Source: Candidatus Hermodarchaeota archaeon (lineage in GTDB: Archaea; Asgardarchaeota; Hermodarchaeia; Hermodarchaeales; Hermodarchaeaceae). Taken from it: a DNA stretch of 15,583 nucleotides. The translations under genes and the position numbers were made by a program. Every line of letters begins with the position of its first letter. Positions within the stretch are counted from its first letter, which is position 1. This document shows positions 3,248 to 14,958 of the stretch, piece after piece. Where the stretch lies: the NCBI GenBank assembly GCA_016840065.1, contig JAEOTB010000038.1:1-15583 (forward strand), in the 5' to 3' direction. A model generated the notes under the pieces. That model had not been told where the DNA came from and ran no database searches. It saw only the letters and a program-made list of their open reading frames with translations.

Positions 3248-5272
3248 TCACTTGCTTCTGCGGCCTCGTTCAGGTTTTCCCGTTGCGCGGAGACCAAGAT
3301 AGGCTTCAATCTCGTTGACAAGGTCTCGGAGCTCAGCAGCTCGCTCGAACTCTAGTTCCTCTGCAGCGTGAAGCATCTCCTCCCGCAGCTCCACTATCAA
3401 AAGAGCAAGATCACTTTCATTTGCGGTGCGCCAATTCCGGGGGAGACGGACATCAGGTGCTGCATCTGCTGCGACTCTTTCAACATCTTCTGCGATGTCA
3501 TCGAGTGACTTCACGATTGTTGTTGGTGTGATTCCATGCTCACGGTTATGCGCCATCTGGAGGTCCCGTCTGCGATTATTCTCAGAAATAGCCCGCTGCA
3601 TAGAATCTGTCACCTTGTCAGCGTAGAGAATCACGGTTCCGTTCACGTTCCGGCTCGCACGACCCATCGTCTGAATCAAGCTGGTTTCAGAACGTAGGAA
3701 GCCCTCTTTATCTGCATCCAGTATCGCGACAAGTGATACTTCCGGAAGGTCAAGCCCTTCGCGGAGAAGGTTGATACCGACAACAACATCGAACTTACCA
3801 CGCCGCAGGTTCCGAAGGACCTCCACTCGTTCAAGGGTGGCAACCTCGGAGTGAAGGTACTCGGCTTTCACTCCCGCGTGAACTAGATAATCTGAGAGGT
3901 CCTCAGCCATCCTCTTAGTCAGGGTAGTAATCAGCACCCGCTCATCCCGTTTTTCCCTCTCTCGTATCTCTGAGAGTAGATCCTCTATCTGACCCTTAGT
4001 TGGGCGAACAATGATTAACGGGTCGATAAGACCTGTGGGTCTGATTATTTGTTCCACAATCTGTTGAGCTTGTCTTCGCTCATAATCTGCAGGTGTCGCA
4101 GAGGTGAAGAGGACCCGTCGCATGAAAGGCTCAAACTCATCGAAGGTAAGAGGTCTGTTATCATAGGCGGAGGGTAAGCGGAACCCGAAGCCCACTAGAT
4201 TATCCTTCCGGGCACGGTCTCCACGATACATACCGCGCAACTGGGGTATGGTGACATGGGACTCGTCGAGGACGAGTAGAAAGTCCTTGGGGAAGTGGTC
4301 TAGCAGGCAGTAGGGCTTCTCCCCTTCAGCGCGACCATCAAAGTAACGGGAGTAATTCTCGATACCACTCGTCCAGCCCACGGTGCTCAACATCTCCATA
4401 TCATATTTAACACGGCGACGAAGACGGTCTGCTTCTAGAATTTTCTCAGCTGCTTCTAGCTCTGCGACACGCTCTCTCAGCTCAACTTCGACCGCTTTAA
4501 CGACTTGAGGAATGTCTTCGCGGTTTGTGGTAAACTGTTTGGCGGGGAATATGCGGATCCGCTCTCGTTCACCCAGCACAGTTCCGTGCAAGGGCGCTAC
4601 CTCGACAATTTCCTCAATGGTGTCGCCAAATGTTTCAAGTCTAACGGGTGTGTCCGCGTAAGCTGGAAAGACTTCAATAACATCACCCCGTACCCTAAAG
4701 GTACCCCTCTTGAAATCGAAATCGTTCCTTTGATACTGAAGATGAACAAGGCGCGAGAACAGCTCCTTCCGGGTTATGGTCTGTCCCTTCGTCAACTCCA
4801 GCATCACACCACGATACGCGCTGGGCGCTCCAGTGCCGAAGATGCAAGAAACCGTTGCCACAATTAGCACATCTTTCCGCATAGCCAATGATGCTGTCGC
4901 AGCCAGCCGCATACGCTCCACCTCCTCATTGATCGAGGAATCCTTCTCGATGTAGGTGTCCGAAGTCGGCAAGTAGGCCTCGGGTTGATAATAATCATAA
5001 AATGACACATAGTACTCTACTGCTGAACCCGGGAAGTATTCCCGGAACATGCTGCAGAGCTGAGCGGCAAGAGTTTTGTTCGGGGCGATGACAAGTGTGG
5101 GTTTCTGGAGCGCGGTAACCACTGAAGCAACAGTGAAGGTCTTACCTGACCCAGTTACTCCAAGAAGGACCTGCTTGTTGTGACCTTCCTTGTAGCCTTT
5201 CAGAAGTCGTTTGATGGCTTTAGGTTGGTCGCCTCGTGGCTTGTAACGTGGGTTCAACTCGAACTTTGTCAC
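3248..5272 (-). CDS. uvrB: Excinuclease ABC subunit B (UvrB)
   Basis: 674 aa. Motifs GVTGSGKT, APNKTLAAQL, beta-hairpin YYDYYQPEAY, DESH, GFRLPSAYDNRPL, LREGLDLPEVSLVAILDADKEGFLRS, and a C-terminal UVR domain (AAEELEFERAAELRD). GTG start with GGAGG RBS at ~5283-5287. Confidence 0.98.
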   Translation of the reverse strand: MTKFELNPRYKPRGDQPKAIKRLLKGYKEGHNKQVLLGVTGSGKTFTVASVVTALQKPTLVIAPNKTLAAQLCSMFREYFPGSAVEYYVSFYDYYQPEAYLPTSDTYIEKDSSINEEVERMRLAATASLAMRKDVLIVATVSCIFGTGAPSAYRGVMLELTKGQTITRKELFSRLVHLQYQRNDFDFKRGTFRVRGDVIEVFPAYADTPVRLETFGDTIEEIVEVAPLHGTVLGERERIRIFPAKQFTTNREDIPQVVKAVEVELRERVAELEAAEKILEADRLRRRVKYDMEMLSTVGWTSGIENYSRYFDGRAEGEKPYCLLDHFPKDFLLVLDESHVTIPQLRGMYRGDRARKDNLVGFGFRLPSAYDNRPLTFDEFEPFMRRVLFTSATPADYERRQAQQIVEQIIRPTGLIDPLIIVRPTKGQIEDLLSEIREREKRDERVLITTLTKRMAEDLSDYLVHAGVKAEYLHSEVATLERVEVLRNLRRGKFDVVVGINLLREGLDLPEVSLVAILDADKEGFLRSETSLIQTMGRASRNVNGTVILYADKVTDSMQRAISENNRRRDLQMAHNREHGITPTTIVKSLDDIAEDVERVAADAAPDVRLPRNWRTANESDLALLIVELREEMLHAAEELEFERAAELRDLVNEIEAYLGLRATGKPERGRRSK

Positions 5273-13307: not shown

Positions 13308-14438
13308 TCATGGGTCCTTGAGGAGAAAGTCTTCTATCTTATCACGAGCCTCTTCGCGACGCTCCTGATGCTTGGTCAAGTATTCGGTGGCAAGTTCAAT
13401 GCAGATACCCTTACACTCGCCACACAACATTTCTCCTGAGCGGCAGCGGCGCTCGATTTCTCCAAGCTTGTCATCCTCTGGCATGAATACTAATTGGTAG
13501 TTGGCAAAGATAGAGCAAATATCTGGATTTCCACCCAGTTTACGCTGTTCTGCTGCGTTACCCCTCCCACCTGTGAAAGCGTTCCTGAGCTTCTTCTCTA
13601 TAACTTTCGGTGGATCGACTGTGAACACAGCGGATTCAGGATCCGAGGCTGACATCTTACCACCTTGCTGAAGTCCAGGCAGAAACTTTGAGTGCAGTAT
13701 TGCAGGGCTGAAGTAGCCAATCTTGGGTAGGACATCACGGGCAACCCTGAAATGTGCGTCCTGATCGATGGCCAGCGGAATGACACAGGGTACATTCCTC
13801 CCAACCCTTACACTGTGAAGAATAGAGGGGACCGCTTGAAAGCTAGTGTAGAAGATTTGACCGATATTATGGGAATTAGTGAACCCAAAGGTAGCACGGA
13901 CGGTCGAGAAGGTTATCCGCTTTGCCACTCGTATCGCCAATGGGTAGAGCGTCCCAGCGTGTTCGCTGTCAATGATGATGTGAGTCTTGTCTGGTTCGAA
14001 GCCCATCGCGATGAGGTCGAGGGCGTTTTCCCGCGCAAAGAAGTTGGTCTGCTCCAGAGTCATTTCAAAATTGTGCACGAATTTCTCGTCGTCGGTGAGC
14101 TGGAAATAGAAGGGGACCTGGAACTTGTCCTGCATGTACTTGGTGAATATGAACTGGGTTAGGTGCCCGATGTGGGTGTGCCCGCTTGGACCACGACCAT
14201 TGTAGAGGAAGAAAGGATTGCCTTTCTCCAGCTCATCAAAAACCCACTTCATGTCGCGGTGTGAGAAATATACGCCACGCCGTAGGAGGTAATGTAGTTC
14301 TCCTGCGTGTTTTTCAAAACGCTTGAGCAGCGCCGCGTCAATGAGTTCTGCGCCGAATTGCTTGACAAGCTTGTCGTAATCGATGTCGCCCTTCACTTCG
14401 TAGGGCGTGACAACCATACTATCTTCGTCACTGGGCAT
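13308..14438 (-). CDS. trpS: Tryptophanyl-tRNA synthetase, archaeal/eukaryote type
   Basis: VTPYEVKGDIDYDKLVKQFG, LRRGVYFSHRD, GRGPSGHTHIGH (HIGH), TDDEK, IDQDAHF, KMSAS (KMSKS), AFTGGR. Confidence 0.98.
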   Translation of the reverse strand: MPSDEDSMVVTPYEVKGDIDYDKLVKQFGAELIDAALLKRFEKHAGELHYLLRRGVYFSHRDMKWVFDELEKGNPFFLYNGRGPSGHTHIGHLTQFIFTKYMQDKFQVPFYFQLTDDEKFVHNFEMTLEQTNFFARENALDLIAMGFEPDKTHIIIDSEHAGTLYPLAIRVAKRITFSTVRATFGFTNSHNIGQIFYTSFQAVPSILHSVRVGRNVPCVIPLAIDQDAHFRVARDVLPKIGYFSPAILHSKFLPGLQQGGKMSASDPESAVFTVDPPKVIEKKLRNAFTGGRGNAAEQRKLGGNPDICSIFANYQLVFMPEDDKLGEIERRCRSGEMLCGECKGICIELATEYLTKHQERREEARDKIEDFLLKDP

Positions 14439-14708: not shown

Positions 14709-14723
14709 AAAAAAAGCTTTAAA
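14709..14723 (+). promoter_or_regulatory. BRE + TATA promoter of tRNA-Trp
   Basis: AAAAAAAGC-TTTAAA, with the TATA element at 14718-14723, about 29 nt upstream of the tRNA 5' G. Confidence 0.65.
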
Positions 14724-14751
14724 CCATAGTAAACCTTACCGCTTCTGCATT

Positions 14752-14949
14752 GGGGTCATGGCCTAAAGTGCTGATCAAAAGCATGGGTAACCCGGCATGG
14801 CAACGGGCTCCAGAGTTAGCTTCCAGTAAGTAGCTGACCGGAAAACCGGGATGACGAGGTTCTGGAGCGATCGGGCGAAACCCGTAGATTGAGGGTTCAA
14901 AAGCCGCCAGAGAAACGCTCAGCGGCGGGAGATCCCTCTGACCCCACCA
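14752..14949 (+). tRNA. tRNA-Trp(CCA) with three introns (14767-14790, 14814-14879, 14902-14932) and encoded 3' CCA
   Basis: Acceptor GGGGTCA/TGACCCC + A73 + CCA; D-arm GCCT-AACCCGGCA-TGGC; anticodon stem ACGGG/CCCGT with loop CT-CCA-GA; T-arm GAGGG-TTCAAAT-CCCTC. Removing three BHB-like bounded inserts yields a 77-nt cloverleaf. Confidence 0.93.
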
Positions 14950-14950
14950 C

Positions 14951-14958
14951 TCTTTTTC
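14951..14958 (+). terminator. Oligo-T tract after tRNA-Trp
   Basis: TCTTTTTC starts 2 nt after the CCA end, as expected for an archaeal U-rich terminator. Confidence 0.5.

Follow-up and report, generated by a model that had tools for sequence, protein, structure and literature searches.

RESULTS

Organization of the tRNA-Trp locus

The window, by which we mean the whole stretch of 15,583 nucleotides that was analyzed, is the entire contig C11 of a genome assembly of 2.59 Mb in 131 contigs (84% complete). Toward its end lies a tRNA-Trp(CCA) gene whose four exons are separated by three introns, with the gene for the tryptophan-tRNA ligase on the opposite strand. The features of the locus, in positions of the window, are as follows.

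13308-14438, minus strand: trpS, tryptophan-tRNA ligase, divergent from the tRNA-Trp gene across a 313-bp spacer
14709-14725, plus strand: putative promoter, an A-rich BRE-like run and TATA-like GCTTTAAAC, centered ~32 nt upstream of tRNA position 1
14752-14766, plus strand: exon 1, 15 nt, tRNA positions 1-15 (acceptor 5′ strand, D-stem 5′ strand, A14 and A15)
14767-14790, plus strand: intron 1, 24 nt, D-loop position 15/16, relaxed motif
14791-14813, plus strand: exon 2, 23 nt, positions 16-37 (D-loop, D-stem 3′ strand, anticodon-stem 5′ strand)
14809-14811, plus strand: anticodon CCA, within exon 2
14814-14879, plus strand: intron 2, 66 nt, canonical position 37/38, a conserved long tRNA-Trp intron
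14834-14854, plus strand: candidate k-turn module, with D′-like CUGA at 14834-14837, stem CCGG/CCGG (14838-14841 with 14846-14849) and C′-like GAUGA at 14850-14854
14860-14868, plus strand: guide UUCUGGAGC, 9 nt, complementary to G31-G37 and the first two intron bases
14880-14901, plus strand: exon 3, 22 nt, positions 38-59 (anticodon-stem 3′ strand, variable loop, T-stem 5′ strand, T-loop to A59)
14902-14932, plus strand: intron 3, 31 nt, T-loop position 59/60, hBHBh′-type, closed by the T stem
14933-14949, plus strand: exon 4, 17 nt, positions 60-76 (T-stem 3′ strand, acceptor 3′ strand, A73)
14947-14949, plus strand: encoded CCA, the end of exon 4
14953-14957, plus strand: T5 run just 3′ of CCA, a likely archaeal terminator

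An earlier note on this DNA, made by reading the letters, had proposed a tRNA-Trp in four exons, and all of its exon and intron coordinates and lengths proved correct. ARAGORN identifies the 77-nt product of the four exons as tRNA-Trp(CCA), whose acceptor stem has 7 bp and whose anticodon and T stems have 5 bp each; A73, the G1-C72 pair and the encoded CCA are visible directly in the joined sequence, and its T-loop is GTTCAAATC. The cloverleaf has no stem mismatch except at 13:22, where mismatches are common in tRNAs. Exon 1 is identical in the orthologues of the congeners G002 and G003 and nearly so in the sister genus. The 198-nt unspliced precursor also has a fold that beats all 200 shuffles (z = −3.9).

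Upstream of the gene, 16 relatives have the block AAAAAAG(C/G)TTTAAA(T/C)C at an unchanged distance from their orthologous gene, and by its sequence this block would serve as the promoter. T-rich tracts follow CCA in the orthologues too, and transcription may end at the T5 run. The trpS gene was identified by NCBIfam NF008927 (490.5 bits, cut-off 478) and by Pfam tRNA-synt_1b matches, and its head-to-head arrangement with tRNA-Trp is kept in six relatives, namely G002, G003 and four sister-genus genomes. Elsewhere on the contig, genes for UvrA and UvrB adjoin each other (2-2854 and 3248-5272, both on the minus strand), and beyond them are encoded a QueT transporter, an ADP-forming CoA ligase-like protein, a nitroreductase and a FAD-linked oxidase. 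The genome encodes an ESCRT-II EAP30 protein (89.7 bits, above the Pfam cut-off), an actin-family protein and a weak profilin-like match, in agreement with an Asgard host.

Three introns with bulge-helix-bulge elements

Introns of the bulge-helix-bulge (BHB) type had been proposed at 15/16, 37/38 and 59/60, and the BHB elements quoted for them are all present at the locus. Each of the three introns has its two bulges separated by 4 positions, with both cut sites in the register needed to restore the tRNA, and all modeled pairs in the three motifs are standard pairs. Intron 1 has a central helix of 4 bp, two of which are G-U; in introns 2 and 3 alike, three pairs are accompanied by one mismatch. 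Among the features that count against the three-intron reading are these single mismatches, the lack of an exon helix at the 3′ cut of intron 1 and, for intron 2, the greater stability of the guide-duplex fold described below.

In intron 1, G10-U13 pair with intron nucleotides 19-22 (GCCU/GGGU, two G-C and two G-U pairs), and a 5-bp inner hairpin, GUGCU/AGCAU, closes the AAA bulge that holds the 5′ cut (after AA). The 3′ cut, between AA and C16, sits in an open loop, where the helix could extend by G9-C17 alone, and it is because this site has no closing exon helix that we class the motif as relaxed. The fold is present in the unconstrained minimum free energy (MFE) structure. The boundaries of intron 1 can slide across a repeated TAA, and we place it at 15/16 because the bulge geometry selects that register. 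The TAA at both ends was also considered as a target-site duplication and rejected, since this gene's other introns in relatives lack the repeat and BHB motifs would have A-rich bulges in any case. The 15/16 insert is absent from all 16 family orthologues; in these loci the sequence GGCCTAACC(C/A)GG runs on continuously and equals the predicted splice junction. No second copy of intron 1 with 3 or fewer mismatches was found in G000-G004, G000 being the genome of the window, and a search of the same five genomes for donor copies of introns 1 and 3 gave nothing above chance.

The BHB motif of intron 2 is present just as the earlier note had described it, with the anticodon stem, the central helix CUCC/GGCG with a U33×C mismatch, and bulges AGA (cut after AG) and AAA (cut after AA). 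Its flanking helices are the anticodon stem and a possible 7-bp intron helix, which competes with the k-turn.

In intron 3, U54-C56 pair with intron nucleotides 27-29 (UUC/GGA) next to an A57×G26 mismatch, and the inner helix GCCGC/GCGGC has 5 bp. The elements claimed for this motif and its closure by the T stem were borne out, and the A57×G mismatch in the central helix has to be added to that description. The fold is part of the unconstrained MFE structure. Orthologous 31-nt introns stand at 59/60 in G003, of the same genus, and in G004, of the sister genus. Both flanking helices, the T stem and the 5-bp intron helix, are kept in the three genomes, as are 16 of 16 pairs, two of them by compensatory changes, a count that is statistically weak with three sequences. 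In 13 family orthologues the 59/60 insert is absent and GGGTTCAAATCCC is continuous, again equal to the predicted junction. At least four other tRNA genes of the same genome carry a 26-30-nt insert at 59/60.

Orthologues with other intron sets

A DNA search of 40 relatives found a tRNA-Trp orthologue in 15 of the 18 same-family genomes, and the orthologous loci were inspected directly and by a spliced aligner. Twelve sister-genus genomes have the anticodon intron alone, and their D-arm (GGCCTAACCAGG) and T-arm are continuous at the sites of introns 1 and 3. The congeners G002 and G003 have, in place of the 15/16 insert, a 30-nt intron in the anticodon stem, after GGCAAC. Because these natural intron-less alleles show continuous sequence, the splice junctions are fixed independently of any motif, and the inserts are dispensable for the mature tRNA-Trp sequence. 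The agreement between alleles and predicted junctions goes far beyond what chance would give. The differing intron sets also indicate that intron turnover in this gene is recent, because the congeners that differ in them have TrpRS proteins 93-95% identical.

The T arm itself comes in two alleles. GAGGG/CCCTC accompanies the 59/60 intron in the three genomes that have it (window 14891-14938, L004:1384-1431 and L005:1606-1653), and CTGGG/CCCAG is found in all 13 orthologues without it, the congener G002 included. The 5′ half of the gene tracks the genus, while the T arm is discordant. Such a pattern suggests that the 3′ portion of the tRNA-Trp gene has undergone recombination or conversion.

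A predicted broad-specificity splicing endonuclease

Two EndA paralogues are encoded in the genome, each with both PF01974 and PF02778 (the N- and C-terminal EndA domains). The alpha paralogue, a 185-amino-acid ORF at L001:1222-1779, aligns over its full length with the catalytic subunit of Aeropyrum pernix (3P1Z_B, 6e-45) and has a triad of Tyr, His (+8) and Lys (+31). Its L1/CSL loop, GFFGKPLGIRKPK, aligns with A. pernix GYYGQPLDVEKPR, which contains K44, and the equivalent lysine is present. In the beta-like paralogue, a 201-amino-acid ORF on L002, Thr replaces the catalytic His; this protein matches the N-terminal, structural half of fused EndA models and is nearer to the Methanocaldococcus jannaschii alpha4 enzyme (1A79, 7e-22) than to A. 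pernix beta (2e-4). Its gene (C10:100109-100714, equal to L002:1192-1797) lies within a cluster of intron-containing tRNA genes and ends 15 nt from a two-intron tRNA gene (C10:100729-100855). RtcB is encoded as well (566 bits).

According to Kaneta et al. 2018 (PMC5829648), Asgard archaea possess an (alpha-beta)2 EndA with the L1 loop, and the lysine of that loop (K44) enables the enzyme to cut relaxed motifs. The earlier note had deduced from the introns that this organism would have a broad-specificity EndA, and the two paralogues agree with it, one being catalytic with a crenarchaeal-type L1/CSL loop and its lysine, and the other having lost the catalytic His. Their sequences thus support the prediction that the genome encodes an (alpha-beta)2 EndA of the broad-specificity type.

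This enzyme bears on the reading of intron 1, which could instead be a retained, enlarged D-loop, introns 2 and 3 alone being spliced. Automated annotators often output such genes with the D-loop insert retained. The relaxed motif, with its unclosed 3′ cut, would fit retention, and the 24-nt insert is known from this genome only and therefore has no comparative support for its fold. However, a 32-nt D-loop would break the D-stem, whose 5′ strand pairs with the insert in the MFE structure, as well as the G18G19 elbow contacts, and the central helix, 3-nt bulges and intron hairpin set the cuts in the sole register in which splicing recreates the sequence seen in the intron-less orthologues. The loop and lysine linked to cleavage of relaxed motifs are present in the alpha EndA, and D-arm inserts of Asgard tRNAs occur at BHB motifs far above null models (bioRxiv 10.64898/2026.10.13.758758). 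We consider retention very improbable and treat the 24-nt insert as a spliced intron in what follows.

Intron 2 carries a conserved k-turn-like module and guide

Among 16 family genomes the anticodon intron is ~80% identical. R1, a covariance model built on the core of this intron, found that core in 46 of 151 sampled genomes of the phylum, and the core also occurs in Bathyarchaeia tRNA-Trp genes. A scan of a contig collection from other lineages with an 18-nt intron pattern (16 specified bases) returned mostly chance bacterial matches, the real ones being Bathyarchaeia tRNA-Trp. Within the intron, GA...GAUGA is nearly invariant, the first box having the general form xxGA, and the stem between them covaries, reading CCGG/CCGG here and CCAG/CUGG, CCGC/GUGG or CCC/GGG in the distant copies of Bathyarchaeia. 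We read this GA-stem and stem-GAU-GA layout as a k-turn, to which L7Ae may bind.

The guide UUCUGGAGC spans the 5′ exon-intron junction in its pairing, covering C34, and is invariant in all 23 aligned introns. Its duplex is part of the MFE structure; forcing all three splicing motifs to form costs 16.6 kcal/mol in stability. These modeled conformer energies match an order in which the guide would act first and splicing would come later. At the 5-nt ruler distance from the C34 partner there is no consensus D box or CUGA-like box, the 4 nt at the ruler position being AUCG here and ACCU, GUCU or GUCA in other introns. Because of this missing D box, we infer C34 methylation and do not claim it outright. 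Fibrillarin is encoded in the genome (292 bits).

Only one box pair is found in intron 2, CUGA at 14834-14837 and (G)GAUGA at 14849-14854, flanking the 4-bp stem; a second, terminal C/D box pair is not recognizable in it. For the guide that precedes CUGA, the precursor in the window offers no complementary stretch of at least 6 nt, and a position-39 guide, such as those of Haloferax and Bathyarchaeia, was sought and is absent from the window's family. The missing box at the ruler distance and this unmatched guide both depart from a textbook C/D RNA. No curated RNA family in Rfam matched the intron at threshold, and permissive thresholds gave no credible C/D family, the only C/D match being sR23 with 9.3 bits on the opposite strand. 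Introns of tRNA-Trp have been described with a median length of 65 nt and a nested box C/D sRNA that guides C34 and U39 methylation (PMC4090602), and in Sulfolobus the boxes of the tRNA-Trp intron are degenerate while the complementarities are kept (PMC3326292).

Bathyarchaeia tRNA-Trp introns (L022, L035, L039, L048 and L098) share the GAUGA-guide core with those of Asgard archaea and retain a second guide, ACGGGUUUG-C(U/G)GA, which pairs with the junction of the intron and 3′ exon and has C39 at the 5-nt ruler position. Several Bathyarchaeia tRNA-Trp genes have an extra intron in the variable region or D-loop. In the sister genus (L007-L018), the guide just upstream of CUGA is complementary to the gene's own 5′ leader (GUCUGUC/GACAGAC), so that nucleotides ~3-11 upstream of tRNA position 1 would pair with intron-2 bases ~12-20. 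Among 13 genomes, 4-5 of the 7-8 pairs change on both sides, a covariation that was reached by 2 of 500 shuffles, with slid controls far lower. This pairing is absent from the window's genus and from G004. If true, either a clamp between leader and intron or a C/D guide directed at the leader would be out of the ordinary.

The gene is overlooked by standard searches and is the only copy found

The unspliced locus is not called by ARAGORN, has no match at the Rfam gathering thresholds and is not found by RF00005 when the whole genome is searched at E ≤ 1; no tRNA match appears in the 401 bases around it with all Rfam models at E ≤ 10. The suspicion that standard annotation may miss the gene was thus well placed, with both ARAGORN and the Rfam tRNA model failing on it. 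Because these two standard searches overlook the gene, the tRNA-Trp of such Asgard genomes would be wrongly annotated as missing. With introns allowed, ARAGORN reports 28 tRNA genes in the genome, 16 of them with inserts and none of them tRNA-Trp, and only ~29 tRNA genes are detectable in the assembly by standard models.

An intact tRNA-Trp elsewhere would have spoken against the proposal, and none was found in the 84%-complete assembly by ARAGORN, BLAST with the mature tRNA, a scan for an uninterrupted CCA anticodon arm with a T-loop after it, or model R1, the last three returning this locus alone. Because the genome is 84% complete, a second tRNA-Trp gene may still exist; the present one is the sole gene found here for an essential tRNA. 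A scan for T arms in the same genome returned further tRNA genes with inserts of 26-30 nt at 59/60 that are missed by ARAGORN and RF00005 or lie below their cut-offs:

C78:101267-101462, minus strand: Leu-like tRNA gene, 196 nt, several inserts
C102:44351-44468, minus strand: tRNA-Leu(TAG), 30-nt insert at 59/60
C78:77948-78051, plus strand: tRNA-Gly(TCC), 30-nt insert at 59/60
C10:100729-100855, minus strand: Arg(CCT)-like tRNA gene, inserts in the D-loop and at 59/60

The incompleteness and fragmentation of the assembly, together with the small number of tRNA genes that standard models detect, would also suit a decaying pseudogene or mis-assembly, with the functional tRNA-Trp in the unassembled 16% of the genome, but we consider this very improbable, as the spliced product is a flawless cloverleaf apart from 13:22, the promoter, terminator and trpS neighborhood are kept in independent assemblies, introns 2 and 3 stand at the same sites in other assemblies, and other tRNA genes of this genome that standard searches miss share the architecture.

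DISCUSSION

We conclude, with a probability of roughly 0.9, that the locus is a functional tRNA-Trp(CCA) gene, the only one in the assembly, with three protein-spliced introns of the BHB type. In the mechanism that we propose, the BRE/TATA promoter would give rise to a precursor of ~200 nt that carries all three introns, and those at 15/16 and 59/60 would fold locally into bulge-helix-bulge-like motifs. The 66-nt intron would probably act first as a box C/D-like guide for ribose methylation of C34, in a guide-target conformer, and would then refold into the BHB conformer and be spliced. The predicted heterotetrameric (alpha-beta)2 EndA, in which the L1/CSL loop of alpha would permit relaxed motifs, is expected to cut the introns, and RtcB would ligate the exons. 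The sequence comparisons establish the boundaries of exons and introns, the motifs, the enzyme genes and their conservation, and from these we predict splicing itself, the sequence of steps and the methylation.

Triple-intron tRNAs had been presented in the earlier note as rare and described mainly in Thermoproteales and Thermofilum, a background that needs correction: this host belongs to the Asgard archaea, a group for which genes with as many as five inserts have been published (PMC11291895; bioRxiv 10.64898/2026.10.13.758758). In Atabeyarchaeia and Freyarchaeia, 92-95% of tRNA genes are interrupted, more than half of them by several introns (PMC11291895). A census of Asgard tRNAs counts 2.2 inserts per gene on average and five at most, notes that tRNAscan-SE misses those in the D-arm, and describes repeated terminal gains, an enrichment of inserts at BHB motifs and two EndA paralogues; its preprint text mentions neither Hermodarchaeia nor tRNA-Trp (bioRxiv 10.64898/2026.10.13.758758). 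The novelty of our locus is lowered accordingly, because multi-intron Asgard tRNAs, D-arm introns missed by annotators and the (alpha-beta)2 EndA have already been published (PMC11291895, PMC5829648, bioRxiv 10.64898/2026.10.13.758758). Our gene resembles these cases from the same phylum in having several inserts of ~20-30 nt in the D-arm, anticodon and T-arm regions at BHB motifs, in the D-arm insert that annotators miss, in the two-paralogue EndA and in repeated lineage-specific gains. It differs from them in that the gene is a tRNA-Trp, whose canonical intron is long and has a k-turn and guide by our reading, and in that intron gain and loss are traceable among congeners (TrpRS identity 93-95%).

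The triple-intron tRNAs of Thermoproteales, as they are summarized in PMC4033280 and PMC4090602 (Sugahara 2007, 2008; Fujishima 2010), likewise have up to three BHB introns at non-canonical positions and depend on an (alpha-beta)2 EndA with the CSL loop. They belong to a different phylum, and in those summaries similar intron sequences recur across tRNAs, which points to transposition, whereas no second copy of intron 1 or 3 was found here. The endonuclease of A. pernix (3P1Z, 3AJV) shares with our predicted enzyme the CSL/L1 loop of alpha, the K44 equivalent, the triad and a second, non-catalytic paralogue; here, however, the beta-like paralogue is closer to the alpha4 enzyme of M. jannaschii, and the activity is predicted from sequence.

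For intron 2, the nearest parallel is the nested box C/D sRNA of Haloferax and Pyrococcus, as reported in PMC4090602 and PMC3326292 (Clouet d'Orval 2001; Singh 2004), with an intron of ~65 nt at 37/38, a guide duplex over C34 across the 5′ junction, a CUGA/GAUGA k-turn pair, and guide-duplex and BHB conformers that compete. Unlike those introns as reported there, ours has one clear internal D′/C′-like pair without consensus terminal C and D boxes, and its precursor holds two further introns. It also differs from the Bathyarchaeia copies, in which ACGGGUUUG-CUGA matches position 39, in that the second guide has no match to that position. Because two non-canonical introns and an ancient guide-bearing intron share one precursor, the gene is a convenient substrate on which to study how broad a range of substrates Asgard EndA accepts and in which order methylation and splicing would take place.

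What this locus adds is turnover at a fine scale, as genomes with nearly identical TrpRS (93-95%) differ in the non-canonical introns of their tRNA-Trp genes. The intron-less and differently interrupted orthologues of close relatives make this a well-controlled case for interrupted Asgard tRNA genes. It is conceivable, and in our view rather unlikely, that the BHB introns of this genus's tRNA-Trp are gained or exchanged very fast, arriving and spreading by recombination of tRNA gene segments between related lineages. This reading draws on the 15/16 intron that is unique to this genome, the 30-nt anticodon-stem intron of the congeners, and the 59/60 intron that occurs with GAGGG/CCCTC across two genera; if it were true, introns would reach and pass between related lineages along with segments of the tRNA gene. 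In other families of the phylum (L158-L165), tRNA-Trp genes have two to four introns at differing sites, and that of G039 (L159, C1, ~779.8 kb) apparently has four, in the D-loop, at 37/38, in the variable region or T-stem, and in the T-arm. The 1.4-Mb genomes of the phylum have a tRNA-Trp with the 37/38 intron and an insert of ~29 nt in the variable region.
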